Part shown: one piece after another, positions 1 to 14,099 of the stretch
Numbering within the stretch: the first letter of the stretch is position 1
How the letters are laid out: every line of letters starts with the position of its first letter
Assembly (NCBI GenBank): GCA_965214095.1
Contig: OZ243938.1
Location: forward strand, 4,672,001 to 4,736,000
Source of the DNA: Candidatus Poribacteria bacterium
GTDB lineage: Bacteria; Poribacteria; WGA-4E; WGA-3G
Direction: 5' to 3'
DNA length: 64,000 nt
Notes under the pieces: model-generated
Told to the model about the DNA's origin: nothing
Databases searched by the model: none
Seen by the model: only the letters and a program-made list of their open reading frames with translations
Made by a program: the position numbers and the translations under genes

Positions 1-39
1 TCTACTACGACTAATCGCGGTACAGTCCGTTGTCGACCA

Positions 40-1659
40 TCACGTTCTGGTCCTCGCATAACAAGCAAATTGTTCCTCGGTCATATCTTCAACCATATCA
101 CCCCATCGGTCTTGCGGATCAACCACACCACCACCCCAATTTGTATTTTTCGACTGATACTTAATCAGAACACCGCGTCTGGGTATTGAATTTTTCCACT
201 TTAAGGCACCGTGTGTGCAACCACCATCCATAAAGAAGAGTACATCTCCCGCTTTCATAACAGGTTGTACCACTAACCCCATCGTGTCATCACACGTACG
301 AATTCCGCGTGGCATAGAATACTGAGTCTTGTGTGAGCCTGGTACACATGCAAACCCGCCTAATCCGGGTTCAACGTCTCGCAACTGCCATGTGATAGTG
401 ACAGTCTCAGCATAACTGCGTCCGTTTTTAAAATCATAACCACGTGAAGGACTTATCGGTTCATTGCCATCGTGCAGTGAATGACCTGAAGTTCCTTGAA
501 CTGCACAGAAGACAGTCGCTCCACCTGTGCGATACCCACTTCCCCCCATCCAATTGAGCCGCTGTACTACAGTTGGATGTGCGATCATACGGCGGAATGG
601 AGCATTATATGGGTCGGGAAGGTCTAACAATCCTGGTAAGAGTGGACGACCCGTGCCAGCTTGACTAACAGAACCTCTTGCCAGTTCATCACCTACGACG
701 ATACGATCTTGATATTTATCTACTGCCTCATTTGCCTCTGCAAGCCATCTTTCATCCATCACACCACGCACGACCAAATATCCGTTCAGATCCCAAAAGT
801 AAAATTCTTTCTCATCAATTCCAGAATCCGGATCACGAATATATATGGATGGATGCATGACAGATGTGTCCTCTTCTACCCACGTCTTTTCACCATTAGT
901 ATTTAACACAGGTGGTGGATTTGAACCTTTAAATCCGGGTCTATACATGACAGCCTTTTGTGCTGGTGTCGCTTCATCTGCCCATTCCGGTAAAGATTCG
1001 GTCTCTGAATGTGGTCCAATTGGATTGGATTGAATTGCCGCACGGGCAATATACGAATATGATAGAAGCTTTTTCGGTTTGTCTTTCCACGGATGAAGAC
1101 CTTGGAGCGTAGGTACAGCAAGTAAAAACAGATCTCCTGCATTCATTGTTGGTTGTTGGACTAATCCCATATCGTCAATTCCGTTCATCAAGTCGTGTGG
1201 GGTTTCAACATTACTCTTATGGCTTGCCTGAACAACAACTAAACCACCGTCGCCTTCTGCGATATCTTCTAATACCCAGATCGCTTTCACTCCTTGACAA
1301 CTTCTTCGTCCGTTCTGTTGACGATATGCTAAGGATGGATTTCGCGGTTCATCTCCACCTACAAGTTTTGTGTTTATTTCACCATCGCTTTGTCCTAACA
1401 ATTGAGGTGCTTGATCCAGTCGGAATCCGTGTCCGATAATCTGATTCAGATACCACACCAATTTTGGATGTACCAATAAGTCTCGGAACAATTCTCGGTA
1501 TGGACTTGTCCCTCCTAATAGCGTATCACTCTCTCCAATAGACTCTAATGCCTCGTTTAGTGCTGCCACTTCATCTTGTGTTAGGACACTTGGAATATGT
1601 AAATATCCTGCCACATCAAAAGCATAGTTTTCTTCATTACTCATAACTTCACTATCCAT
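40..1659 (-). CDS. Tandem (two-domain) phytanoyl-CoA dioxygenase (PhyH)-family Fe/2OG protein; 3' end probably frameshifted and continuing past the window edge
   Basis: Two repeats of the PhyH fold (Y-F-D-x-x-GYL..., GG-x-x-x-V-x-x-SHK, AGD-x-x-F). GGAGG RBS ahead of ATG 1659. An alternative frame near nt 60 continues as AVMRGPERDGRQRTVPRLVV. Confidence 0.8.
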   Translation of the reverse strand: MDSEVMSNEENYAFDVAGYLHIPSVLTQDEVAALNEALESIGESDTLLGGTSPYRELFRDLLVHPKLVWYLNQIIGHGFRLDQAPQLLGQSDGEINTKLVGGDEPRNPSLAYRQQNGRRSCQGVKAIWVLEDIAEGDGGLVVVQASHKSNVETPHDLMNGIDDMGLVQQPTMNAGDLFLLAVPTLQGLHPWKDKPKKLLSYSYIARAAIQSNPIGPHSETESLPEWADEATPAQKAVMYRPGFKGSNPPPVLNTNGEKTWVEEDTSVMHPSIYIRDPDSGIDEKEFYFWDLNGYLVVRGVMDERWLAEANEAVDKYQDRIVVGDELARGSVSQAGTGRPLLPGLLDLPDPYNAPFRRMIAHPTVVQRLNWMGGSGYRTGGATVFCAVQGTSGHSLHDGNEPISPSRGYDFKNGRSYAETVTITWQLRDVEPGLGGFACVPGSHKTQYSMPRGIRTCDDTMGLVVQPVMKAGDVLFFMDGGCTHGALKWKNSIPRRGVLIKYQSKNTNWGGGVVDPQDRWGDMVEDMTEEQFACYARTRT

Positions 1660-1794
1660 TTTCCCTCCTGAAAGTGCCGATATTAGCATCTAATAGTTGG
1701 TCATTATATCAATTACAAACTTGACTGTCAATGAATACAACATTTTCGGGTGTTTAGTTCTAATAGATAAGATATCATTGTGCATCGGAATATT

Positions 1795-1897
1795 TATGGT
1801 GAAGCATAGAATTATATCTACACTTTCTATCAGCGGTAGGCGAGGTTTCCTAACCTCGCCTCAGCAATGTGGAGAACTAATTCAATAATTTGCCATA
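1795..1897. mobile_element. Short MITE-like element with internal GGTAGGCGAGGTTTCCTAACCTCGCC REP-like hairpin
   Basis: Hairpin core nearly identical to those at 17811 and 49671; ends TATGGTGAA...TTGCCATA. Confidence 0.55.
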
Positions 1898-1922
1898 GAT
1901 ATTATAGTGGTGTCATTTCTTA

Positions 1923-2077
1923 TTGTCTGAACCAGGATTTTCAAGATTAGTAGATTTGCAGGATTATGAGTTTGGCTCTGCAAAGTTCCTATTCCCAGTT
2001 TGACGTTTATTCTCTGGATGACTCTTTGATGTTTCAGACTCTTATCGTGTAAATCCTGAAAATCCTGGTTCAGACAA
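1923..2077. repeat. 26-bp inverted repeat pair (TTGTCTGAACCAGGATTTTCA[A/G]GATT) enclosing ~100 bp
   Basis: 1923-1948 matches the reverse complement of 2052-2077 with 1 mismatch. Confidence 0.8.
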
Positions 2078-2170
2078 AAAGGAATACAAACCCATAACGA
2101 ATTTAACGTTTGTGATTAATATTGAACAAGAATCCTCAGACTAAATAACCCTGTTAATTACATCATATTG

Positions 2171-2199
2171 TTGATTCTTCCATTAGTTTCTGCTATACT
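2171..2199 (+). promoter_or_regulatory. Putative sigma-70 promoter of the PspA/AAA cluster
   Basis: TTGATT-17 nt-TATACT with extended -10 TG. Confidence 0.55.
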
Positions 2200-2285
2200 A
2201 TGCATTGTAAATTAAAAGTTGTATTCATTGGAATGGTATTTCTCTTTACAAACATCTGGTAGTTGTGATAATATATGTGAGGTAA

Positions 2286-3221
2286 TTGTCTAAAAGAATT
2301 CGTAAAGAAACAATAACGACATCAACAAAAAGTAAACAGATAATACGACTGCTTCCACCTAATGACAGTGTATGCAATTTGGTGATAAAGTTGATTGATA
2401 AGAAATTATTTCGTCAGAAATATCTACTTCATCTTATTAGCAATCCATTTACCATTTACCCATTTGCTGCGGGAGTACTTGGAGTTTTTGCTTCATGGGT
2501 TTTCAATTTAGAACCACAGATACTATATTTGTTTGCTGGTGCTGTCGTCGGTCTTGGATTACCAATAGGCGCGTTGATAACGAAGTGGACTTCTGGCACG
2601 GATGACATTGCAAAAAAGGTTCATGAGGAACTTCTTCATGATGCACATCAACAACAGGAAGAGGAACTTAACGCACTTCATCAGCAATTGCTTAAAGATG
2701 GTGACCAAAGAACCGAACAAATGCTTGAAGAACTGCGGATGTTACACGAATCTTTTCAAGAAGAAGCAATGGACACAGGTTGGATGGCTTCTTTGCCACT
2801 TACCGTAAGTGCTGAAATCGCTGGTAAAGTCTCAGATCTTTTCAATCAAGCAGTTCAATGTCTCAAAGACACCTTGAAAATGTACGAGAAGTCAAAAGAT
2901 TCAAAATTGGCAACCGTCAAACGTGTATTACAGCAACACCGAGAACAACAAATCGCTGATGTTCAGCAGACAATAGTACAACTTACAAATCTCTATGCAC
3001 GCGTCATAACAATTAGTCCTGAAAGCAATGAGACAGAACTCTCACGACTCCGCACTGAACTTGATGAAAGTCTCGCATTTGCCAAGAAAGTTGACGAGCA
3101 AATACGAGAATCTACACCAAATATTGATGTTGATTTGTCTAATGTGGAAACTTCAATTGGAGAATCAACAATTACAACGCATCAGAATGTTGAATCTACG
3201 GAAGAAAGCAATTATCAGTGA
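2286..3221 (+). CDS. Membrane protein: two TM helices plus a long helical/coiled-coil domain (XpaC-like architecture)
   Basis: Hydrophobic segments PFTIYPFAAGVLGVFASWVF and ILYLFAGAVVGLGLPIGALI, then a Q/E/L-rich helical region; GAGG RBS before TTG. Confidence 0.7.
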   Translation: MSKRIRKETITTSTKSKQIIRLLPPNDSVCNLVIKLIDKKLFRQKYLLHLISNPFTIYPFAAGVLGVFASWVFNLEPQILYLFAGAVVGLGLPIGALITKWTSGTDDIAKKVHEELLHDAHQQQEEELNALHQQLLKDGDQRTEQMLEELRMLHESFQEEAMDTGWMASLPLTVSAEIAGKVSDLFNQAVQCLKDTLKMYEKSKDSKLATVKRVLQQHREQQIADVQQTIVQLTNLYARVITISPESNETELSRLRTELDESLAFAKKVDEQIRESTPNIDVDLSNVETSIGESTITTHQNVESTEESNYQ

Positions 3222-3264
3222 ATATGATTGATATGAATTCATTTCTTAGCTCTGGAGGGAATCA

Positions 3265-4020
3265 ATGCAAAACGGAATCACTCGGCTATACAATGCAATC
3301 TGGTATACACAAGTTGGACGTGCCCTTGAACAGAAAGATATAGAAAAAGAAAATGCGGAAAATACACAGGATTTGTTTGCTGAAGAGCTCAACAACCGTG
3401 AAGATATTCAACCCAGTAAACGTGGACATAGTCAACTAAGTAAATCTGAAGTTTTACACGATTCCAAAGTTAACAGCAAAACATCCGGGATAGTAACTCA
3501 GAAAATACTCATAGATAATCTGGATGCTGTCCGACAGACTTATGAAGACATAATCAACGATAAAAGGAATAATATTCAACGATACAAACTTGCAATAGGA
3601 CAACTCATTCCTCTTATAGAACAGAAAAAGAACTCACTGAAAAGTATTTTAGATGATATGGATAAGCTTGAGAAGATGAAGAAGGCTGCAACTGCAAAGT
3701 CCAAAAATATTTCCTTAGAACTAAAAGGGTCTGGCTTATCAGACAGGGAGATAGAACAGCATCCAGACTATACACGATGCATCAGTTCATATAATGATTT
3801 CGATTCTACCGTCAAGGAGAAAAACGTTCGTGTGGACGAACTTGAACTGGATATTGAACGTGCACAAGCAGATATTGAACATCATAAATCTAATATCACA
3901 CACCTTCACCGTGATGTAGAAAAGATAAAAACAGAACAATCTGAAGCGATAGCAGACCTTATTACTGCTCGTGAAAAAGAGAAAATTAATGAAGTTTTAT
4001 CGGATATCAAAGTAGATTGA
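3265..4020 (+). CDS. PspA/IM30-like paralogue with N-proximal insertion and truncated C-terminus
   Basis: Clear paralogue of 4082-4918 (shared NG-x-TR...WYT-x-x-GRA, YEDII-x-DK...NIQRYK-x-AIGQLI, KIKTEQSEA-x-ADLITA); GGAGG RBS. Confidence 0.8.
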   Translation: MQNGITRLYNAIWYTQVGRALEQKDIEKENAENTQDLFAEELNNREDIQPSKRGHSQLSKSEVLHDSKVNSKTSGIVTQKILIDNLDAVRQTYEDIINDKRNNIQRYKLAIGQLIPLIEQKKNSLKSILDDMDKLEKMKKAATAKSKNISLELKGSGLSDREIEQHPDYTRCISSYNDFDSTVKEKNVRVDELELDIERAQADIEHHKSNITHLHRDVEKIKTEQSEAIADLITAREKEKINEVLSDIKVD

Positions 4021-4081
4021 CATTAAAATCAAGAAATAACAATTATGAATAATCAGTTAATTTCATATAGGAGGATTTACA

Positions 4082-4918
4082 ATGGCAAACGGATTCACCC
4101 GTTTTTTTAAAGCGTTTTGGTATACACTTACTGGTCGTGCTCATGATCAGGCTGACAAATTGATGGAAGACCCTCATGCTATTCGCGGAGCTTATGAGGA
4201 TATTATCCGTGACAAACAAGGTAATATCCAACGATACAAACAAGCAATTGGGCAACTCATTGCACTTGTTGAACAAAAAAAGAACTCACTCAAGGCACTT
4301 ACCGAAGACATAGGCAAACTCGAACAGATGAAGACAGGGGCAATTGCTAAGGCGAAAAGTACGGCTGCAGAATTGCAACAAGCTGGTACGTCAGATGAAG
4401 AGATCAAACAACATCCAGAATATGTCCGGTGTGTTGGCTCATTTAACGATTTTCATTCAACTTTGGAGGAGAAAAACGCGAGAATTTCCGAACTTGAAGA
4501 AGATATTGATAGGGCACAAAATGATATTGAAGCACACAAAGTTCAAATTACTGGGCTGCACCGTGATCTTGATAAAATTAAAACAGAACAATCTGAGGCT
4601 GTTGCTGACCTGATTACTGCCAAGGAACAAGAGGAAATCGCAGATATGTTGTCTGGTATTAGTACGGATGGAACTTCTGCTGAATTGACACGGATGCGTG
4701 AAATTCGTGAAAAAGCAAAAGGACGTGCAGTCGTAGCACAAGAACTCGCTGGTACAGACTCACGTGCAGAAGAAGAGGAATTTCTTGCTGCAGCGAGTAC
4801 TACTGCCGCTTCTGATGAATTTGACTCACTCATCTTTGGAGCACAACAAACCGATACGCCAGCACAAACTGATGAGGCAAAGAGCGAATCACAGAGTGAT
4901 TCAGAACTGCCGTTATAA
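4082..4918 (+). CDS. PspA/Vipp1 (IM30; ESCRT-III superfamily)-like coiled-coil protein
   Basis: Amphipathic N-terminal helix GFTRFFKAFW, an 'EDP' motif, long helical hairpin, 'ELTRMRE...A...ELAG', acidic helix DEFDSLI and a C-terminal tail; AGGAGG RBS. Confidence 0.75.
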   Translation: MANGFTRFFKAFWYTLTGRAHDQADKLMEDPHAIRGAYEDIIRDKQGNIQRYKQAIGQLIALVEQKKNSLKALTEDIGKLEQMKTGAIAKAKSTAAELQQAGTSDEEIKQHPEYVRCVGSFNDFHSTLEEKNARISELEEDIDRAQNDIEAHKVQITGLHRDLDKIKTEQSEAVADLITAKEQEEIADMLSGISTDGTSAELTRMREIREKAKGRAVVAQELAGTDSRAEEEEFLAAASTTAASDEFDSLIFGAQQTDTPAQTDEAKSESQSDSELPL

Positions 4919-5036
4919 TTATTTAAAATAAGCTAATTCGTATCTGCGGGTAATTCTGCCTATTCAATACATACTGTATTTGGGGCATAGATACCCGCTT
5001 GATATGTTAATATATCAAATAAAAGCGAGATTGTTA

Positions 5037-6839
5037 ATGAACGTAAACACGTGGCATCAGGATAATACACCGAGTTGTTGGGAAGGGGTTTTAGAAAGGC
5101 TTAAGTCGTTTGAGACGCAGGTACACCACATTAAAGCAGCAAAAAAACGGTCAAAGATACCGTCTCAGATGCTTGATTCTTTCTATCACCTTCACGATAA
5201 CTTGATTGCTGAAACAAGCGATACTTTGCGTTCATATCAAAATACTCAGTCTTTTGACTCTCTACATTCAGTATTGGATAATTCATTTGTTGAGGCAATT
5301 TGGTTATCACTTGACCAATATCCTGAACTTGTCAATCACAAAGATATAGAAAACCTTGACACTGCAGGTTCCAAGATCTTCACACGATTTTCCCCTGATG
5401 CCCCAACGAATGTCGCTGATAGAGAGAAATTAAAATCTAAGATTCAACAGGTTTTTAAATTATCTTCCGATACATTAGAAAGACTGACAAGTAAACTTGG
5501 TAATCGGACTGCACCATTACAACACAGGCATCAAATTATGAGATGTCTACAGACAAGGTTCAATCTGGTATCTGGAAATCCTGAATTGGATAGTGATGTA
5601 CTCAGACTGTTTCAAGAGTTATATCCCACTGCCCCTTTTGATGTCGGGGAAGTAAAACTGATAAAAACTTGCTCCGCACTTTACTTCTGTTTGCCTTCTA
5701 AAGTGAAGGAGATTGACACAGAATCTCCAGGTAATATAAAGTCTAAAGAAACAGATAAATCTCATAATGTAAAGCCAGGTAAAAAATTAGGGTACGCGCA
5801 ATTTCTCAGAAGGATTTGGCAGGTTGAACCTTTCGCACACTTTCCAGTCTTTGGTACATTTAACGCCGAGGAACTTGATCCCAGTTTCCGAACAATGATT
5901 GCTGATGACACAGGCCTATCTATTGATTTGGTAACAACTACACTCACACGGATGATCGGCTTTCTACCCATAGAGGAACTGGATAAGTATCTTATTCATG
6001 ACACTTGGGGACATCAATGGCAAGAGAGTTTGCTTGATTTTGAGGAACTTTATACAGAATTATCACTTTTTAACCGTCCACTATCTGTAATGGAATCTGC
6101 TTCTGTCTTAGGTGAACATACTACATTTGGTGATGCGTTTCTCAAAACTGCTTCGGGGAAAATACAACTGGATCCGGATATTCTTACAAAATTTATAGAT
6201 TCTGAGTTGTATGAACGATCTATTGTCGCATTTACGCCTATTCTGGCAGAAATGTTGGCGGATGTTGTAGAATACAAATTCCTAAAACTACATCCTGAAC
6301 AGGTCAACTTAATGCCAAGTTCGTCCCTACTTAAGGACTATCCGAGCAAACTTGATTTAACGCTTGAGGATCTACACAACTGTTTTGAACGCGCATCTGA
6401 AGCATTTCAGACTTGGGTAGATTCGGATGAAGCCAAAAATAGATTACATAATGAGATATGTGAAAAATTTGATATTCAAGAGAGCGAAAGTAATTACAAA
6501 GAATTGAATGACATTCTTGAAAATGCAGTTGCAATTTGTAAAGAACGACTTGAAAGGTTTTATCAACCTGAATGGTATTGGGAAAAGACTGAAGACAACA
6601 ACTTAAAACTAAATGCATTCAGTTTCGCCGCACTCAACTTTCTCCGTATTCATACCGCTTTCTTACATACTTATCAAAGATTATCACAAATTGAAACTTC
6701 GTATGGGTTTATGGATGCACTTGTTTTGGCAATGGGAACTTTTTTTGAAAAGGAACCGCAACGACATATTTGGCAACTTGACAGTTTTTTGACTGAAGGT
6801 TTTCTACCACGATGGGAAATGTTTGCTCAGGCAAATTGA
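5037..6839 (+). CDS. Hypothetical ~600-aa helical protein with a metallopeptidase-like HDTWGH...EMLAD motif
   Basis: Long ORF between the PspA-like and AAA genes; motifs at ~5997-6014 and ~6249-6263; start uncertain (4980/5004/5037). Confidence 0.65.
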   Translation: MNVNTWHQDNTPSCWEGVLERLKSFETQVHHIKAAKKRSKIPSQMLDSFYHLHDNLIAETSDTLRSYQNTQSFDSLHSVLDNSFVEAIWLSLDQYPELVNHKDIENLDTAGSKIFTRFSPDAPTNVADREKLKSKIQQVFKLSSDTLERLTSKLGNRTAPLQHRHQIMRCLQTRFNLVSGNPELDSDVLRLFQELYPTAPFDVGEVKLIKTCSALYFCLPSKVKEIDTESPGNIKSKETDKSHNVKPGKKLGYAQFLRRIWQVEPFAHFPVFGTFNAEELDPSFRTMIADDTGLSIDLVTTTLTRMIGFLPIEELDKYLIHDTWGHQWQESLLDFEELYTELSLFNRPLSVMESASVLGEHTTFGDAFLKTASGKIQLDPDILTKFIDSELYERSIVAFTPILAEMLADVVEYKFLKLHPEQVNLMPSSSLLKDYPSKLDLTLEDLHNCFERASEAFQTWVDSDEAKNRLHNEICEKFDIQESESNYKELNDILENAVAICKERLERFYQPEWYWEKTEDNNLKLNAFSFAALNFLRIHTAFLHTYQRLSQIETSYGFMDALVLAMGTFFEKEPQRHIWQLDSFLTEGFLPRWEMFAQAN

Positions 6840-6865
6840 AATAAAAGGCTGATCTTTCTTGAAGG

Positions 6866-8722
6866 GTGGAGGACAAGACAATCGCTATCAAAGACCCTAC
6901 CTACAAATTCCGAACAGAAGCTGGATTACTAATAAATTCCGGCACATCGCGAAGCATCGTACTTCACGGAAATATACACGACATTTTTTATGTTTCCGAT
7001 GAAGATACCGAGGATTATATCCCACTCGTGTCATTTCTGACACATAGTTGGGATATTTCTGGTTATATCTTAATAGTCTACGAACTCAATGGACCTCTCC
7101 GTTTTTTACATACAAGTGATCGTGAAAGGGTTAAGAACGCTTTTAATTCTTGGAGAGGAACTACTGAACCATCCAAATCCAAAACTCCCAGTCATTTCGC
7201 AGAACTAAGTAGTACAGATGAGGCAGGAAGCAAGGCAGATAAAACTGAGGACACATTTGAAGAATACCTAAACGAAGCCATCGGTAGTCCTACATTGGCT
7301 CTTGAACTTCTCCGACAGTTCTGTTTGATTTCTCGTTCTACAAATGTCAATGGTGATCGTTTATTGGATGAAAAACTACTCATCTTAATAGAAGCAACAG
7401 ATATGTTATTGCCAGAGGGTGAGATACGAACTTTGAGTTTGGCTGACAGACATAGGATTAGTATCATTCAAGATTGGGTTTCTGATTCCGAGTTCATGAA
7501 AGGAACAGATACCGTTGTCTTTATTGCGGAATCCAAAAGCCTTGTCAACTCCCGTATCACACGTCTTCCACAAGTAGTTGATGTAGAAATCCAATCTCCT
7601 GACGTAGAAGCACGGAGACATTTTATTTCATGGTTTAATCGAACGCAAAAAGAAAAGAAAAAAGAACTCAATCTATGGGGGAGTCAATCTCAACTGGCAG
7701 TCCTAACTGCAGGATTATCATTACAAGCATTAAGGCAGATGCTTGTGTCTGCTTGTTATTCTGGTGAGAAACTACAACCTGATATTGTAATTGAGAAAGT
7801 ATCAGAATTCATCCAAGCAGAATTAGGTGAAGATGTTGTTGAGTTTAAAAAACCTGGACATACACTCACAGATATAGTTGGTAATAACAAACTGATTGAG
7901 TTTTTGAGGTCACAGATAATTCCACGAATCACTTCTACTGGAAAGGATTCACTATCTGGACTCAGTGTCTGTGGTCCTATTGGCAGTGGAAAAACATTCA
8001 TATTTGAGGGACTCGCGGGGGAATTGGACATACCTGTTTTAGTTCTGAAGAACATTCGTAGTATGTGGTTTGGTCAGACAGATGTTATTTTTGAAAGACT
8101 CAGACGATTACTTATGGCACTTGTAAATGTGCTTATTTTTGTTGATGAAGCGGATACACAATTCGGTGATGTTGGCAAGGATGCACATGCAACGGAACGT
8201 AGACTTACTGGTAAGATTCAAGCGATGATGTCTGACCCGCAACTACGTGGAAATATCACATGGCTATTGATGACAGCGCGTATCTATAATCTCTCGCCAG
8301 ACCTACGTCGAGAGGGTCGGGTTGGTGATATTGTTATTCCTGTTCTTGATCCAACAGGTGAAGATCGGAAGACTTTTCTTCATTGGACATTGCGCAATGT
8401 CTACACTGAAGCAATCTCGGACGAGGCATTTGAACTCTTGTTATCGCACACTGAAGGTTATTCTGCTGCGAGTTTTGCATCTCTTCGTGCTGACCTTGAG
8501 GCTGCAAAAAACCGTCAGGGTGAGTTATCTGTTGACGAGATCATTGATGTCATATCAGATAGAATTCTACCCAATATTGGTCCAATCCGACGTTATCAAA
8601 CATTGCAAGCATTTTTGAATTGCACACGCAAATCTCTACTTCCAGTGGATTATTCACCAGAAACAAGGGAATCATGGTTAGAACAGATTGCCCAATTAGA
8701 AGTTATGGGGATTAGAGGGTAA
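6866..8722 (+). CDS. AAA+ ATPase with degenerate N-terminal AAA-like domain and intact C-terminal AAA domain
   Basis: Walker A GPIGSGKT, pore loop SMWFGQT, Walker B IFVDEAD, SRH-like TARIYNLSPDLRREGR; N-domain IVLHGNIHD / LILIEATD / SPDVEAR. Confidence 0.9.
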   Translation: MEDKTIAIKDPTYKFRTEAGLLINSGTSRSIVLHGNIHDIFYVSDEDTEDYIPLVSFLTHSWDISGYILIVYELNGPLRFLHTSDRERVKNAFNSWRGTTEPSKSKTPSHFAELSSTDEAGSKADKTEDTFEEYLNEAIGSPTLALELLRQFCLISRSTNVNGDRLLDEKLLILIEATDMLLPEGEIRTLSLADRHRISIIQDWVSDSEFMKGTDTVVFIAESKSLVNSRITRLPQVVDVEIQSPDVEARRHFISWFNRTQKEKKKELNLWGSQSQLAVLTAGLSLQALRQMLVSACYSGEKLQPDIVIEKVSEFIQAELGEDVVEFKKPGHTLTDIVGNNKLIEFLRSQIIPRITSTGKDSLSGLSVCGPIGSGKTFIFEGLAGELDIPVLVLKNIRSMWFGQTDVIFERLRRLLMALVNVLIFVDEADTQFGDVGKDAHATERRLTGKIQAMMSDPQLRGNITWLLMTARIYNLSPDLRREGRVGDIVIPVLDPTGEDRKTFLHWTLRNVYTEAISDEAFELLLSHTEGYSAASFASLRADLEAAKNRQGELSVDEIIDVISDRILPNIGPIRRYQTLQAFLNCTRKSLLPVDYSPETRESWLEQIAQLEVMGIRG

Positions 8723-8758
8723 AATGAATTCAATCAAATTCACATTGTACCTCCACCG

Positions 8759-11743
8759 TTAATCTATACCATTAGCAATTAACACAAGGTCTTGTATATT
8801 GACAACACCATCTCCGTTGACATCGGCACGATTCAATGTTCCTGTTTCACCAAAACTGGTAGCAACTTTTACCAAATCCAATATGTCCACTACACCATCG
8901 TCATTTACATCAAGATGGATTATACTATTTTTCTCAATTTTGTGCCATTCTTGTACCACGTTTCCTAATACATCAACCACTTGGAGTCCAACAGATGTCT
9001 GAGGTGTAGCATACGAATCGGGGACAATGAATTCAATCGTTTCGGTTTCACTGTCCAATCTTTTGCATCCTATCACCTTTGTTCCTTTTATAGGGTCCTC
9101 AAATGTTGAAGGTGTAAGTAGCTGTGCTTGATGTAACCCATCAGAGTCCGACACCTCAAAACGGAAACGGACTGTATTGCGTGAAGTGTAATGTGGTAAT
9201 AAACGGAGGATATGTGTTGTCTCATCATCATCGTTTTGAGTTGCGTTGAATGCCGGATGTACACTCAAAAAATCAGCAGAACATGTAGTGAGTTTCTCAA
9301 AATAACCACTACTCGCAGACATTAGATTCGGTTCCCGAAAATCGTGATATAAGCCAAGAGCGTGTCCAAGTTCGTGAGCAACAATGCGAAAACTGAAACA
9401 GTCATCTACGACAGGAAACATTGCAACTCCTCCGCCAGATGGATGGACACCACCCAACCCGCACACATTGATGCCAAAAATGTTCCCACTCATCTCCAAA
9501 AAAACAACAAGGATGTTTTTTGATATGTCAAATCTTGGACTGATTTCCTCAGTAATTTTTATAAATGCTTGGTCTCTATAGTATGCTTCTTCGTATCTTC
9601 CTACAATATGATGCACAACTAAGTTGTCATCCGCATCAGTTTCATAAGTAAATGTGTTTATACCAAAACCGTGATCTTTCATCTCTTGAGCATAGAATAA
9701 TTTGACATTCACCATTACTCTGTCTACTTGCGTATTTATTCTTTGTTGAAGTAGACGATCTTTTGGACGAAAGTAAATAATCCGTACATTCGTATTGTTT
9801 TTTCTTTCTTGTTGAAGTTGTGAAATCTCTTCCAGCAATTCTTGATTTTGTTCGCGCAATCTCGCGAAATTCCATAGGATGACTGTCCCATCTTGGCTTG
9901 CGCTCGCAAGTGTTGTGCCATCTGGAGAAAACGCAACGGAACGTACTATGTGTGTATGTCCCGTTAGTGTATCAACGGAATATCCTGTCTTAGTATCCCA
10001 TAATCGCACAGTTCCGTCCTCCGCACCGCTTGCAATAGTACTGCCATCTGGTGAAAACGCAACTGATCGTACACTGTATGTATGTCCTACTAACGCAGCT
10101 TTGGTCTCTGTAGTCTTCGCATCCCATAATCGTACAGTCCTGTCTCGACTTCCACTAGCAATTGTATTGCCATCTGGTGAAATGGCAACACTAAAGACTC
10201 TATCGGCGTGTCCTCTAAGCGTTGCTTTAAGTTGTTTTGTTTCTACATCCCACAAACGTACTGTGTTATCTCTACTACCAGTTGCGATTGTGTTTCCATC
10301 ATCAGAATATGCAACACTTAGAATTCTCCAAGTATGTCCTGGTAACGCAGCAATAAGTTTCCATGTTTTAGCATCCCATATACGTAGCATTTTATCTTCT
10401 CCGCCACTTGCAAACGTGTTTCCATCTGGTGAGAACGCAACACTATAAACCGCGAAATTATCTCCCATTAGTGTAGATTTGAGATCTTGACTTTCCGTAT
10501 CCCACAACAGAATTTCCTTGTCACGATAGCCACCACTACTGACAATTGTTTTTGCGTCCGGTGAAAACGCCATTGATACAACGCGAAATGGATGTGCGGT
10601 AAAGGAAGATAGAAACCGACCTGTTTCCACATTCCACAATTGTATTTTGCCATCTTCACTTCCATTCGCAAGAATAGCACCATCTTTTGAATAAGCGAGA
10701 GAGATTTTGCTGTTGGTATAGTCCATCAAAGTAACAGAGGGTTCCCATGTGTTGACATCCCACAATCGGACTGTACCGTCTTCACTTCCACTGGCAAAGA
10801 TTGTGCCATCAAGAGAAAATGATACGGAGGTCACACCTTTTGTATGTTCAATGAACGTAGCAACAAGATAACCCGATTCTGCATCCCACAAACGTACTGT
10901 ATTGTCACTACTGCCACTTAATATCCATCTACTATCAGGAGAATATGTGATTGCTGTTACTGCATCTGTATGTCCTTTTAGTGTGTTGATTAATTCTCCT
11001 GTATCAGCATGCCATATACGTACCGTACTATCACTACTGCCACTTGCAAACCACCTGCCATTCGGAGAAAATGCTACAGAACGTACCCATCCGGTATGAT
11101 CTGTAAGCGTAAAGAGAAGCTGTCCAGTATGAGCATCCCAGACTCGTACCGAACTGTCTTCACTACCACTGATAAGTCTTCCACCGTCAGGTGAATAGGC
11201 AATGGAAGTCACCCAGCGTGTGTGTCCAGAAAGAGTTTCTATGAGTTGGTTTGTACGAACATCCCATAGCCGAATTGTATTATCCCAACTTCCACTTGCA
11301 ATTGTACTCTCAACAGGTGAATATTCCACTGTACTCACTCTGTCGGTGTGTGCAGAGAGGATTGCAATCCGTTCACCTGTTGCAGCATTCCACAAACGGA
11401 CGGTGCCATCTTCATTTGCGGTTGCCAGAACGTTACCGTCTTGTGAAAACGTGGCATTTGATATAGAACCCGCATATCCTTTGAGTAAAGGTAGTTCATC
11501 ACCTGTGTTTATATTATAGCTCCAAATCCCGGCAGAAGTAGCGATGATAAGCCGTGTCATGTCTGGAGTAAAAGTGATTCCATTTATTCTACCTTTCCCT
11601 AAGCGCACTTTCGCATTTTCAGGAAGATACGAATATGGACCGTTCTGTGCAAAACTCAAATGTGAAATAGTTATTGAAATGAGACATAGGCTTGATACGA
11701 GAATAAGAGGTTTTCTCATGTGTTTCCTTGATGGGTAAACCAA
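8759..11743 (-). CDS. Secreted WD40-repeat protein with zinc metallopeptidase and dockerin-like domains
   Basis: Signal peptide; many GH...SPDG...GS-x-D-x-TVRLWD repeats; HELGHALGLYHD; DVNDDGVVDILDLV / DVNGDGVVNIQDLV; real start may be the ATG of MRKPL. Confidence 0.9.
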   Translation of the reverse strand: MVYPSRKHMRKPLILVSSLCLISITISHLSFAQNGPYSYLPENAKVRLGKGRINGITFTPDMTRLIIATSAGIWSYNINTGDELPLLKGYAGSISNATFSQDGNVLATANEDGTVRLWNAATGERIAILSAHTDRVSTVEYSPVESTIASGSWDNTIRLWDVRTNQLIETLSGHTRWVTSIAYSPDGGRLISGSEDSSVRVWDAHTGQLLFTLTDHTGWVRSVAFSPNGRWFASGSSDSTVRIWHADTGELINTLKGHTDAVTAITYSPDSRWILSGSSDNTVRLWDAESGYLVATFIEHTKGVTSVSFSLDGTIFASGSEDGTVRLWDVNTWEPSVTLMDYTNSKISLAYSKDGAILANGSEDGKIQLWNVETGRFLSSFTAHPFRVVSMAFSPDAKTIVSSGGYRDKEILLWDTESQDLKSTLMGDNFAVYSVAFSPDGNTFASGGEDKMLRIWDAKTWKLIAALPGHTWRILSVAYSDDGNTIATGSRDNTVRLWDVETKQLKATLRGHADRVFSVAISPDGNTIASGSRDRTVRLWDAKTTETKAALVGHTYSVRSVAFSPDGSTIASGAEDGTVRLWDTKTGYSVDTLTGHTHIVRSVAFSPDGTTLASASQDGTVILWNFARLREQNQELLEEISQLQQERKNNTNVRIIYFRPKDRLLQQRINTQVDRVMVNVKLFYAQEMKDHGFGINTFTYETDADDNLVVHHIVGRYEEAYYRDQAFIKITEEISPRFDISKNILVVFLEMSGNIFGINVCGLGGVHPSGGGVAMFPVVDDCFSFRIVAHELGHALGLYHDFREPNLMSASSGYFEKLTTCSADFLSVHPAFNATQNDDDETTHILRLLPHYTSRNTVRFRFEVSDSDGLHQAQLLTPSTFEDPIKGTKVIGCKRLDSETETIEFIVPDSYATPQTSVGLQVVDVLGNVVQEWHKIEKNSIIHLDVNDDGVVDILDLVKVATSFGETGTLNRADVNGDGVVNIQDLVLIANGID

Positions 11744-11793
11744 ACTACTTGTACCTGAGTGGATTAGGACAAGTTACAGAGATATTGGAATAA

Positions 11794-11931
11794 TATAGCT
11801 AAAACCATAATTATTTACACACTACGGTAGGTTCGGTTTCCTAACCGAACCGGTGTTTGTTCTGTCTCATAAATGCGGTTAGGAAACCGCATCTACCGCG
11901 GAGTGTGCACGTATTTTTATATTTCACTATA
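11794..11931. mobile_element. MITE-like element (TATAG ends) containing an inverted doublet of GGTAG REP hairpins
   Basis: Reverse complement of 46129-46266; hairpins GGTTCGGTTTCCTAACCGAACC and ATGCGGTTAGGAAACCGCAT. Confidence 0.8.
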
Positions 11932-11947
11932 GTAATGATAGAAAGAA

Positions 11948-11973
11948 AACAGACGGAGCAAACCCCGTCTGTT
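11948..11973 (-). terminator. Likely intrinsic terminator of the cadherin-domain gene
   Basis: AACAGACGG-loop-CCGTCTGTT hairpin followed by a T-rich tract on the - strand. Confidence 0.55.
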
Positions 11974-11999
11974 CAATTGAATAAATTATATGAATACAC

Positions 12000-14099
12000 T
12001 TACTTCAGGATTAGCATTTTCCGGGTTGCAGAAAATTCTCCTGCTGTGATTCTATAGAAATAGATTCCGCTCGCAACAGACTCACCCATATCATTTGTGC
12101 CATCCCAATACGCAGCTTGACTACGAGTTTGATATAAGCCAGCAGATTGATGACCGAGGTCAAATTGACGCACAATACTACCATGTGCATCATAAATGCT
12201 GATTTGCACCTCACTCGGTTCTGCTAAACGATAAGGTATCCATGTCTCAGGATTAAATGGGTTTGGATAATTTGGGAGTAATGCTGATGATTGCGGAATC
12301 AAGGTTGCTAAGAGTTGTTCAAGCACCTGAATCCCTTGCTCATACGTTCGCTTGGGTTGATGGACAGACCTATCAATCGGCAAAGATAGCATTTGCTTTG
12401 AAACCTTCAACGACTGTTTCATCTGCCCAGTATTAAGCTCCTGCTTAGCAAGTCGCAACCACTGTTGTACTTGTGATGCGTGTAGTCCTTTAGCTGATGG
12501 TGCAGCAAGATTGCCATTCCCAAAACCGTTCGCTACTATGACCAGATCTTGAAAATTCACCAACCCATCACCATTGAGATCGGCTTCCAGGGCACTCGAA
12601 TCTCCGAATTTAGATGCGACCAATACTAAATCTAATATGTTGATAACATTGTCGTCGTTCAAGTCACCAATCAGCGGCAGCCGATAGCCGGGAGTGCCAA
12701 GACTCAATTCTTCTGACACACCATCATCATATCCGAGACCATCTTTGTAGCCACTTTCATCCCATGCTTCTGCTTGATATCCGATAATAGCAGGTTTTGC
12801 CCGATACCATGCGACATCAGTTGTAAGTAGAGGTGCAGTTTCAGGTTTCACAGGACGATTCGGAAAGTAATTACCAACGGTATCTTCATACCCGCCATCA
12901 GCACCTTGCAGGAACAACGCAAAATCAGTTGGTGGTAAACTGAAGCTTTCATCAATGACATAACGAACAGAACCGTCTCCAGGATCTGCTAATAGACTCT
13001 CAGATGAATTCGGATCTGTATTTACAATTAACATCACCTCACCAGCAGGAATCGTTTCCCCTGTGGGAAATGTAATTGTAGTCATTCCTGAACCCACGTG
13101 AATTGTCATCTGCCAACCCGACAAATCCACTTCTTCATCACTTATATTTCGTAACTCCAACCAATCATGTGCATCGTTTGCCCCGTTATACAGTTCGTTA
13201 AAAATAACTTTATCCATAGAAAGCAGCTGCACCAGTTGATCAATTTCAACACTACTGACAGATGGTGCCGTATCAACTTCTCCGAAACCTACCCCATACA
13301 CAATAAGAACACAGTCATTATTTGAGAGCGTATAACCGGAAGGACAACTTGTATCAGTTGAATTGGTAACATTAATAGTAACGCTGATTGAATCCTCACT
13401 ATTTGTCTGTTCTCCAGCAAACACATTAACTGTTACCGAATAGGAATTCTTAACTTCGTAATCAAGCGAGGCTTTGGTCTTCAACTGACCTGTACTTCCA
13501 TCAATTTTAAATGAACTCGCATCTGTGCCACTAAGTGTGTACTTATCAAGATTGCTATTAAAATTACTTGCGGCAACAGGATTACCGATGTTTGTGTTAG
13601 CAGCAGTATTTTCTGCTATAGAGCGGGTTGTACTATCTCCATCTGAAAACTGCAAGGATACATCAGTGACATTGATGGTGACAGAAATTGTATCTGTATC
13701 GGTGTAATTAGTAACTATCGGACCAGTAATTGAATCTGAAAGAGGACTAAGACGACCTTTTTGTGCCGCAACCGTTAATGAATAAGATGACTTAGTTTCA
13801 TAATCAAGTACAGTATTCGTTTTCAATTGTCCTGTACTACTATTAATAGTAAAGGAACCTGCATCGGTTCCCCTAATGACATATCGTCCTAATGAGGCAC
13901 TAAAATTATGTGCTGATACAGCACTACCAACATTCGTATTTGTTGAAACATTTTCTGCAACGGATCGGGTAGTACTATCATCATGATAATGACCAGATTC
14001 ACCGCTATGTGCAAAACAAGTACCCACAATGCTCCAACACAGAAAAATGCCTACAAATACTTTTGCATTGATTCTTCTTTTTACAATCGTATGCTTCAT
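12000..14099 (-). CDS. Secreted cadherin-repeat / lamin-tail-domain / dockerin-like protein with FlgD-Ig (T9SS type A-like) C-terminal domain
   Basis: Two 'GTDA-x-SF-x-I...GQLKT...LDYE-x-K-x-SYS' cadherin repeats; IFNEL...DWLELRN (LTD); DLNDDNVINILDLV; NYPNPFNPETWIPY...ASGIYFY...TRKMLILK. Confidence 0.9.
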   Translation of the reverse strand: MKHTIVKRRINAKVFVGIFLCWSIVGTCFAHSGESGHYHDDSTTRSVAENVSTNTNVGSAVSAHNFSASLGRYVIRGTDAGSFTINSSTGQLKTNTVLDYETKSSYSLTVAAQKGRLSPLSDSITGPIVTNYTDTDTISVTINVTDVSLQFSDGDSTTRSIAENTAANTNIGNPVAASNFNSNLDKYTLSGTDASSFKIDGSTGQLKTKASLDYEVKNSYSVTVNVFAGEQTNSEDSISVTINVTNSTDTSCPSGYTLSNNDCVLIVYGVGFGEVDTAPSVSSVEIDQLVQLLSMDKVIFNELYNGANDAHDWLELRNISDEEVDLSGWQMTIHVGSGMTTITFPTGETIPAGEVMLIVNTDPNSSESLLADPGDGSVRYVIDESFSLPPTDFALFLQGADGGYEDTVGNYFPNRPVKPETAPLLTTDVAWYRAKPAIIGYQAEAWDESGYKDGLGYDDGVSEELSLGTPGYRLPLIGDLNDDNVINILDLVLVASKFGDSSALEADLNGDGLVNFQDLVIVANGFGNGNLAAPSAKGLHASQVQQWLRLAKQELNTGQMKQSLKVSKQMLSLPIDRSVHQPKRTYEQGIQVLEQLLATLIPQSSALLPNYPNPFNPETWIPYRLAEPSEVQISIYDAHGSIVRQFDLGHQSAGLYQTRSQAAYWDGTNDMGESVASGIYFYRITAGEFSATRKMLILK

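Follow-up and report, generated by a model that had tools for sequence, protein, structure and literature searches.

Five consecutive genes in the genome of a Candidatus Poribacteria bacterium, a sponge symbiont – here called g1 to g5 and lying at 2286–8722 of the window, by which we mean the whole 64,000-nt stretch that was analysed (contig OZ243938.1, positions 4,672,001–4,736,000, forward strand) – may encode the form that a system widespread among bacteria takes in Poribacteria, where a divergent protein of the PspA/Vipp1 family (g3) sits beside its own type-II classical AAA+ ATPase (g5) and forms a polymer that the ATPase remodels. Taken as a whole, we regard this reading as evenly balanced; that the PspA-like protein and the AAA+ protein are functional partners is highly probable, and direct action of the ATPase on the PspA polymer is an even call at best.

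The association itself, and the idea of remodelling, had already been predicted in 2024 and are not new. According to the main text of Ravi, Anantharaman, Aravind, Gennaro et al. (mSystems 2024; PMC11237479), bacterial PspA co-occurs with a protein containing two AAA+ domains, the N-terminal one being inactive; longer operons also include a protein with a transmembrane (TM) segment (called a Snf7 homologue), an ABC ATPase, a permease and a PBPB-OmpA protein; and an ATP-dependent membrane remodelling, likened to that by Snf7/VPS4, is proposed. As the elements of this description were recovered independently in the present analysis, in the window or in related loci, the locus appears to belong to that predicted system, as the main text outlines it. 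The same main text contains no occurrence of the word Poribacteria. What is added here is a Poribacteria variant of the system (with g4 in the place of the ABC transporter, detached VWA and OmpA genes, and a tail-less PspA paralogue), a two-module architecture, and a dichotomy in the C-terminal tails of the PspA-like proteins.

A divergent PspA-like protein and its tandem AAA+ neighbour

By its sequence, the product of g3 (4082–4918, plus strand, 278 aa) is a member of a divergent subfamily of PspA/IM30, within the ESCRT-III superfamily. It scores 38.1 bits against the Pfam family PspA_IM30 (PF04012), for which the cut-off is 33.9 (E = 1.6e-9), and it does so over nearly the full length of the profile, residues 9–243 aligning to profile positions 3–206 of 220. 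Among PDB sequences, its top four matches are all Vipp1/PspA chains (E = 6e-5), and the match that follows is weaker by about three orders of magnitude. When the g3 family was searched as a profile (alignment A5), Vipp1/PspA again took the top four places (E = 4e-6), ahead of a match about 30-fold weaker, and no CHMP or Snf7 chain is among the matches listed at E ≤ 0.1. An earlier, sequence-only reading of this locus had named 4082–4918 as a PspA/Vipp1 member, and the score above the Pfam cut-off, together with Vipp1/PspA as the best solved relatives by sequence, upholds that assignment. The subfamily is divergent: no other Pfam family is matched by as many of the 13 g3-family members as PspA_IM30, yet only five of them match it at E ≤ 0.01. 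At the N-terminus, a predicted amphipathic helix (4082–4141, plus strand) begins with the 18 residues that have the highest hydrophobic moment of any such stretch in the protein (0.50, a computed property only), and both Trp13 and Gly18 are conserved across clades; residues 1–18 would thus fit the membrane-binding helix expected of PspA/Vipp1.

The preceding gene, g2 (3265–4020, plus strand, 251 aa), encodes a paralogue that is 48% identical to g3 (E = 4e-79), in agreement with the earlier claim of two PspA/Vipp1 paralogues, although g2 has no Pfam match of its own. It carries a 55-aa insert after its N-terminal helix – the hydrophobic moment of which is weaker (0.14) – and terminates after helix 4, so that it lacks helix 5 and the C-terminal tail. 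The host genome (94.5% complete, 5.25 Mb, four contigs) contains three more PspA/IM30 genes elsewhere (L001–L003; contig C1, 3938452–3939051 and 3940101–3940700 on the plus strand, in tandem, and 3969836–3970477 on the minus strand), with Pfam E values of 1e-27 to 3e-12, better than that of g3. None of the three shows BLAST or HMM (hidden Markov model) similarity to g3, which thus looks like a dedicated paralogue, separate from the other PspA genes of the genome.

The last of the five genes, g5 (6866–8722, plus strand, 618 aa), encodes what Pfam, PDB and hhalign comparisons identify as a tandem AAA+ ATPase. Its C-terminal half holds a classical AAA domain (residues 358–573, nt 7937–8584), of which residues 368–488 match Pfam AAA (PF00004) at E = 6e-14, with a Walker A motif at 7973–7996, pore loop 1 at 8060–8080 and a Walker B motif at 8138–8155, all on the plus strand. 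The best PDB sequence matches, which begin at about residue 320–360, are to Cdc48/p97/VAT; g5 aligns to both D1 and D2 of Cdc48, and its pore loop aligns with the aromatic loop of Cdc48 D2, having the same aromatic–hydrophobic–glycine form. No Vps4 chain was found among the best 60 of 156 PDB matches, and the NCBIfam matches to CDC48, PAN, CdvC and FtsH are weak and all far below their cut-offs (for CdvC, 29.3 bits against 650). Across 24 diverse homologues, down to 26% identity, the Gly and Lys of Walker A are invariant, and conservation reaches at least 90% for the Asp-Glu of Walker B, the pore-loop Gly and one Arg in the second region of homology.

The N-terminal half (approximately residues 20–330, nt 6923–7855, plus strand) aligns to the C-terminal AAA domain in hhalign with 95.8% probability (E = 6.5e-9); where Walker A and B would stand in it, the Lys and the Asp-Glu are missing. 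On these grounds, g5 is a tandem AAA+ protein whose second cassette is, judging by its motifs, active and whose first is inactive. The two AAA-like halves and the Cdc48-D2-like aromatic pore loop bear out what had been claimed from the letters, namely a double-domain AAA+ protein of the classical clade; equally, the claim that the linked ATPase has no GAFTGA motif agrees with a motif search of g5, in which no TM segment and no helix-turn-helix domain were found either. Neither Pfam nor NCBIfam detects an MIT domain, a double-psi-barrel adaptor or any other domain before the AAA region. Counted at E ≤ 1e-30, the family to which g5 belongs has 235 clusters (50% identity), most of them with full-length matches, and two clusters among the 10 representatives checked are labelled 'SpoVK/Ycf46/Vps4 family'. 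One database entry in this family, P0398, is labelled as a Nanoarchaeota metagenome-assembled genome (on a 15.6-kb contig) and falls into the 90%-identity cluster of P0276, which is itself 40% identical to g5; the label reflects either a transfer or a binning error.

Of 176 genomes from the phylum, 129 carry a g5-like gene, as do all 111 from the window's own family, nearly always as a single copy. We surveyed gene order around the best 80 of 505 g5 relatives, 77 of which are assigned to Poribacteria and three to 'uncultured bacterium', so that this survey is silent on other phyla. Upstream of the g5-like gene and on the same strand, a PspA-like gene is present in 77 of the 80 loci (76 with a different, non-overlapping pick of open reading frames (ORFs)), the three misses being contigs with just 1227–2413 nt of upstream sequence. 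Because the pairing of g3 with g5 recurs in these 77 loci, and again in the distant clade described below, the arrangement seen in the window is not due to chance.

The PspA-like protein encoded nearest to the ATPase is also set apart by its C-terminus. An acidic–hydrophobic motif in the tail of g3 (residues 245–252, nt 4814–4837, plus strand) is conserved in its orthologues, where it is followed by a short conserved C-terminus. In the Poribacteria loci, which have up to three additional PspA paralogues each, all 77 of the AAA+-proximal copies have the motif and none of the 33 additional, g2-type paralogues does; the PspA-like proteins of the distant clade keep a related tail. This restriction of the tail to the copy nearest the ATPase appears to be a new observation, and could serve as a sharp experimental handle. 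ESCRT-III subunits bear C-terminal motifs that bind Vps4, and by analogy the tail dichotomy resembles what one expects of a tag by which the ATPase would be recruited or engaged. A complex prediction for full-length g5 (alignment A1) with the tail of g3 (residues 186–278, alignment A5) gave scores of 0.30, 0.54 and 0.12 against a mark of 0.32; made without controls, it counts neither way. Separately, we note that in some Poribacteria g1 and g4 flank a run of three or four PspA-like paralogues (L010:4589–7955; L007:4269–8057), of which only the last has the tail.

Two modules, joined or apart

What lies around the PspA–AAA+ pair varies. In 50 of the 77 loci, fewer than 400 nt separate the PspA-like gene and the ATPase gene; in 21, a homologue of g4 stands between the two, and 20 of these also have g1, the other being a truncated contig; four have one smaller gene in between; and two (L078 and L084) have a 4.2-kb block. 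By Pfam, the block of L078 encodes a DUF481 protein, an ABC permease and an ABC ATPase, and the operon begins with genes for VWA and OmpA-domain proteins. The locus L082 has the order VWA, PBP/OmpA, g1, PspA, g4, AAA+. In the host of the window, the corresponding VWA and PBP/OmpA genes (L113 and L114) lie outside the window at C1:4852644–4855187 on the minus strand, 172 kb from g1–g5, and are 57% and 63% identical to their L082 counterparts. A search for g4 in five genomes with the short form of the locus (PspA–AAA+) found, in three of them, a VWA–OmpA–g1–g4 operon elsewhere; in the other two, the g4 query gave no match. Being fused in some genomes and apart in others, the genes make up a system of two modules: module A, with VWA, OmpA and g1 plus either g4 or an ABC transporter, and module B, with PspA and AAA+. 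This architecture is a new observation. It also qualifies the earlier view of the five genes as one system, for the PspA–AAA+ core is conserved, whereas g1 and g4 go with VWA–OmpA and belong to a separate operon in other Poribacteria. In one Poribacteria locus (L029:5060–9238), we also noticed a 1392-aa ORF inserted between g4 and the AAA+ gene.

The product of g4 (4980–6839, plus strand; likely true start at the ATG at 5037, giving 600 aa, from the alignment of homologues) is a soluble, mostly α-helical protein. As the L078 operon has its ABC block between PspA and AAA+ and L082 has g4 there, g4 occupies the slot of the ABC transporter, which is again a new observation. It is apparently restricted to Poribacteria, the phylum of all source names given for its 202 homologues. 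Besides many other invariant residues, 21 homologues share an invariant His/Asp-rich block (residues 338–349, nt 5991–6026, plus strand); the description of g4 as a 'metal-motif protein' therefore stands as regards the motif, and metal binding remains a guess. The AlphaFold2 model is fairly confident (pLDDT 77.5, pTM 0.78), and a Foldseek search of the PDB with it found no structural match (best E = 0.15, TM-score ≤ 0.16); nor did g4 match anything in Pfam, NCBIfam, PADLOC, PHROGs, PDB sequences or Atlas. A 359-aa protein encoded after PspA in L078 was considered as a relative of g4 and rejected (hhalign probability 0.5%).

The first gene, g1 (2286–3221, plus strand), encodes a coiled-coil protein with two TM segments. 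Its true start is likely a GTG near 2382, giving 279 aa, since the aligned homologues measure 278–281 aa. Two hydrophobic segments (approximately residues 55–73 and 78–100, nt 2448–2585, plus strand) are followed by a predicted helical cytoplasmic part of about 190 aa. Homologues are present in 22 of the 80 Poribacteria loci, and searches of Pfam, NCBIfam and the PDB found no family match for g1. A relationship to ESCRT-III or Snf7 was tried and rejected: in hhalign, the g1 family aligns to the PspA-like one with a probability of only 1.9%, none of the eight PDB profile matches at E ≤ 10 is an ESCRT-III protein, and Snf7, PspA and Rv2743c are absent from the 25 listed of 36 matched Pfam families (13 members). 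Foldseek found nothing at E ≤ 0.001 and no ESCRT-III protein in the 50 matches listed, with the soluble domain of IncA at rank 4 (E = 0.16), an outcome that carries no weight because the AlphaFold2 model is of low confidence (pLDDT 55.7, pTM 0.40). In Atlas, a language-model comparison, unnamed Planctomycetota clusters score 0.95; the nearest named cluster, at 0.87 and thus below the 0.9 mark, carries PF25587 (Rv2743c) on 12% of its members and is a lead only.

The association extends beyond Poribacteria. A distant clade of ATPases, 26–30% identical to g5 (alignment A3), is represented by 24 related loci in metagenome contigs. Source names from a protein search place the clade in candidate division KSB1, Acidobacteriota and Aminicenantes, and among them are the cultured Acidobacteriota Acanthopleuribacter pedis and Sulfidibacter corallicola. 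With an HMM built from Poribacteria g3 homologues only, a PspA-like gene was found upstream on the same strand in six of the 24 (E = 2e-7 to 2e-12), namely in all five loci whose upstream sequence extends over 4 kb or more and in L100, where it is directly upstream. In each of the six, a g1-like gene directly precedes the PspA-like gene; the calls in L098, L100 and L102 are independent of the sequences on which the model was trained, and the copy in L110 matches g1 directly by phmmer (E = 6.6e-8). By Pfam, the other partners are VWA, OmpA, an NMT1/THI5-like binding protein, an ABC permease and an ABC ATPase, and the operon order is VWA, OmpA/PBP, g1-like, PspA-like, ABC transporter, AAA+. The full set of the longer operons – TM protein, ABC ATPase, permease and PBP/OmpA protein – is present in L078, L103, L107 and L110. 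The sequence-only reading had staked itself on synteny of the ATPase and PspA genes in other genomes, and such synteny is what the 77 Poribacteria loci and the six distant ones display. The PspA link thus holds for at least two clades. More remote relatives of g5 (22–27% identity) are carried, among hypothetical genes, by large plasmids of Paenibacillus polymyxa, Aneurinibacillus sp. and Arthrobacter sp. (L085–L087).

Within the window, g1–g5 all lie on the plus strand, separated by gaps of 43, 61, 61 and 26 nt, in keeping with the five co-oriented, closely spaced genes described from the letters. The further claim of a single sigma-70-like promoter fares less well: a weak hexamer pair (10 of 12 matches, with a TG extension) is indeed present upstream of g1 at 2245–2272 on the plus strand, but the region shows no enrichment of such sites (28 observed against 22.4 ± 4.0 in shuffled sequence), so that the pair is no evidence of one promoter. 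Metatranscriptome contigs from four runs of a single study, derived from a relative of 90–95% similarity, cover g1–g5 and bridge g3–g4–g5, which gives a weak hint that the genes are expressed. These runs contain only about 0.10–0.11 of the sampled words, their contigs reveal neither transcript starts nor levels, and bins without contig cover carry no meaning. In all four runs (X1–X4), the contigs cease to match at 8714 and continue into unlike sequence, so the related strain has a different gene downstream of g5.

Proposed polymer remodelling and competing explanations

In the mechanism that we favour, g3 would polymerise and coat the inner membrane through its N-terminal amphipathic helix, the tail-less g2 perhaps co-polymerising with it. 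Anchored or nucleated at the membrane by g1, the polymer might also be linked through g1 to the peptidoglycan-bound OmpA/VWA module, which is encoded 172 kb away in this host. A hexamer of g5 would engage the exposed tail of g3 and thread the protein through the aromatic pore loop of its active ring; by extracting g3 subunits in this way, it would remodel or recycle the polymer, as Vps4 does with ESCRT-III. In this scheme, g4 would be an accessory standing in for the ABC transporter that the ancestral operon had. A stronger version can be imagined, in which the locus encodes an independently evolved bacterial counterpart of ESCRT-III/Vps4 – a heteropolymer of tailed and tail-less PspA-like proteins, nucleated by g1 at the inner membrane, tied to the cell wall through VWA/OmpA, turned over by a tandem AAA+ protein that recognises the tail, and with g4, of new fold and possibly an enzyme, in place of the ABC importer by which the ancestral system would be fed or would sense – and this we consider rather doubtful.

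Several points weigh against the proposed remodelling by g5. The ATPase has neither an MIT domain nor any other substrate-binding domain recognised by Pfam. The PspA membership of g3 rests on one divergent profile match, with E ≤ 0.01 in Pfam for just five of the 13 family members, and coiled-coil proteins are prone to spurious profile matches. One and the same set of related sequences served first to define the tail motif and then to count it, and the genomes are themselves related. Of the 24 distant loci, 18 have less than 2.8 kb of upstream sequence and no PspA-like gene in the stretch available, and are therefore uninformative; at the plasmid-borne relatives from Paenibacillaceae and Arthrobacter, PspA is absent among the 10 neighbour proteins scanned, so the ATPase family as a whole is not bound to PspA. 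The RNA contigs could hold carried-over DNA, and no silent-stretch control accompanies them. Finally, in E. coli the relation between PspA and an AAA+ protein is the reverse, with PspA inhibiting PspF, as a 2025 review summarises it (PMC7619361). The Vps4-analogue reading is upheld in part, by its family memberships, its synteny and its missing MIT domain; it remains a plausible proposal, and one that had been published before as a prediction.

A reversed logic of this kind could apply to g3 and g5 as well, the PspA-like protein being a regulator or adaptor of the ATPase, one that keeps it inactive or brings it to membrane under stress; the clients of the ATPase would then lie elsewhere – damaged membrane proteins, g1 or the VWA/OmpA module, for example. 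VWA proteins are classic partners of AAA+ proteins, and the ancestral operon includes one; the plasmid-borne relatives of g5, having no PspA in their vicinity, likewise suggest that the ATPase can have other clients. The precedent is the AAA+ protein PspF, which is bound and inhibited by PspA in Proteobacteria (PMC7619361; PMC11746142). However, g5 is no sigma-54 activator, as it has no GAFTGA motif and matches PF00004 instead of the sigma-54 activator family, and the tail dichotomy (77 of 77 against 0 of 33) looks like a substrate or recruitment tag, though an adaptor would fit it too. We consider this explanation unlikely. Somewhat further from what the evidence favours, and in our judgement quite unlikely, is that PspA and AAA+ serve as assembly chaperones, building or maintaining, at the inner membrane, a trans-envelope complex of OmpA/PBP with the ABC transporter (or g4), remodelling being secondary to solute uptake or envelope tethering. 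The ancestral operon, with its PBP-like protein, ABC permease, ABC ATPase and PBP/OmpA protein, speaks for such an explanation, which is close to the suggestion of 'chaperone-like assembly' in the main text of PMC11237479; it can also draw on the three of five short-form genomes in which g1 and g4 sit in a VWA–OmpA–g1–g4 operon away from PspA–AAA+. Yet 50 of the 80 Poribacteria loci keep only PspA–AAA+, and in two of the five short-form genomes no g4 was found with this query, so that the pair can persist without a linked transporter.

That the AAA+ protein and a membrane-active coiled-coil protein form an anti-phage or stress-triggered abortive module is very improbable. The PADLOC matches that might suggest it (IetA for g5, E = 1.3e-4; ZorA for g1, E = 5.5e-3; LmuB/JetC coiled coils for g3) are all weak and reflect a generic AAA core in the case of IetA, a partial ZorA or coiled coils; g5 has, besides, a match to PHROG 8638 (E = 1.4e-14), whose function is unknown, and has the plasmid-borne relatives amid hypothetical genes already mentioned. 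Unlike patchy defence islands, g5 occurs in 111 of 111 genomes of the family, nearly always as a single copy, and no nuclease or other effector domain is found in g1–g5.

Set against the systems that it recalls, the locus lies, by its sequence, outside ESCRT-III/Vps4 proper, classical Psp and any PADLOC defence system. With ESCRT-III/Vps4 (CdvB/CdvC), it shares an ESCRT-III-superfamily subunit encoded together with a classical-clade AAA+ protein with an aromatic pore loop, and several paralogous subunits of which only one type has a conserved C-terminal tail. It differs in that g3 is of the PspA rather than the Snf7 branch – Snf7 (PF03357) has no match at E ≤ 0.01 in the whole 94.5% complete genome – and in that g5 has no MIT domain, has two AAA cassettes and is closest to Cdc48/p97. 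Given the missing MIT domain, the earlier wording of an analogue rather than an orthologue of Vps4 is apt. Like the classical Psp system of E. coli (PspF–PspABC), the locus links a PspA-family effector to an AAA+ protein and a small membrane partner, but g5 is no sigma-54 enhancer-binding protein, and a Pfam search of the whole genome, at the same completeness, was negative for PspB (PF06667) and PspC (PF04024), just as had been claimed for the locus.

LiaI is a membrane partner of PspA in Bacillus. In position and architecture, g1 is anchor-like in the same manner as LiaI and the mycobacterial PspM (Rv2743c), for it is small and integral to the membrane, and its gene directly precedes one for a PspA protein; the only link to these partners is a language-model lead (0.87) without HMM support. 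Type II classical AAA+ proteins (Cdc48/p97/VAT, NSF, Pex1/6) resemble g5 in having two stacked cassettes, one of them catalytically dead, and a pore loop like that of Cdc48 D2, whereas g5 has no recognisable N-terminal adaptor or substrate domain and forms a distinct family.

The closest counterparts are the operons of PMC11237479, to which the locus was matched by the description in the main text: both have PspA beside a two-AAA+ protein with a degenerate first domain and a TM coiled-coil protein, and relatives of the g1–g5 locus add the ABC ATPase, the permease and the PBP/OmpA protein. In contrast to those operons, the window contains g4 and no ABC transporter, the VWA–OmpA genes of the host are 172 kb away, a tail-less PspA paralogue is added, and the TM protein, called a Snf7 homologue there, has no detectable homology of that kind in the form of g1.

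The means by which bacteria take apart their polymers of ESCRT-III type (PspA, Vipp1) are an open question, for which the PspA–AAA+ pair offers a concrete and testable candidate. Structural work invokes chaperones, or PspF by analogy (PMC11746142), and the 2025 review states that a Vps4-like ATPase appears to be absent in bacteria (PMC7619361) – a statement that a complete bacterial counterpart of ESCRT-III/Vps4, if true, would contradict. The subfamily of PspA described here travels with its own threading-type AAA+ protein across at least Poribacteria, KSB1, Acidobacteriota and Aminicenantes and, as cultured Acidobacteriota are among the carriers, genetics may be possible. The literature searched, with subscription-only papers outside its scope, yielded neither an experimental study of a PspA-linked tandem AAA+ protein nor a paper naming both Poribacteria and PspA.

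Neighbouring genes

The gene that follows g5 encodes a 994-aa WD40-repeat protein (8759–11743). The sequence-only reading had placed the two head-to-head, which is wrong: the WD40 gene is on the minus strand and its stop end faces the stop of g5, which makes the two convergent (tail-to-tail), with 36 nt between them. Directly upstream of PspA–AAA+ and on the same strand, many short-form Poribacteria loci encode a WD40 protein of about 670 aa (e.g. L035:6893–8914, plus strand). The presence of a WD40 gene near the pair could be due to chance in genomes rich in WD40 genes, or could point to a third partner.

An Rfam scan of positions 1–12000 of the window found no family. On the other side of the locus, and divergent from the g1–g5 operon, lies a gene for a 549-aa protein with a PhyH (phytanoyl-CoA dioxygenase) domain (40–1689, minus strand), preceded at 1703–1731 on the same strand by a sigma-70 consensus with 12 of 12 matches and a TG extension. 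Beyond the WD40 gene, a 699-aa protein (12000–14099, minus strand) combines cadherin, lamin-tail, dockerin and FlgD-Ig domains with a C-terminal sorting domain for type IX secretion.

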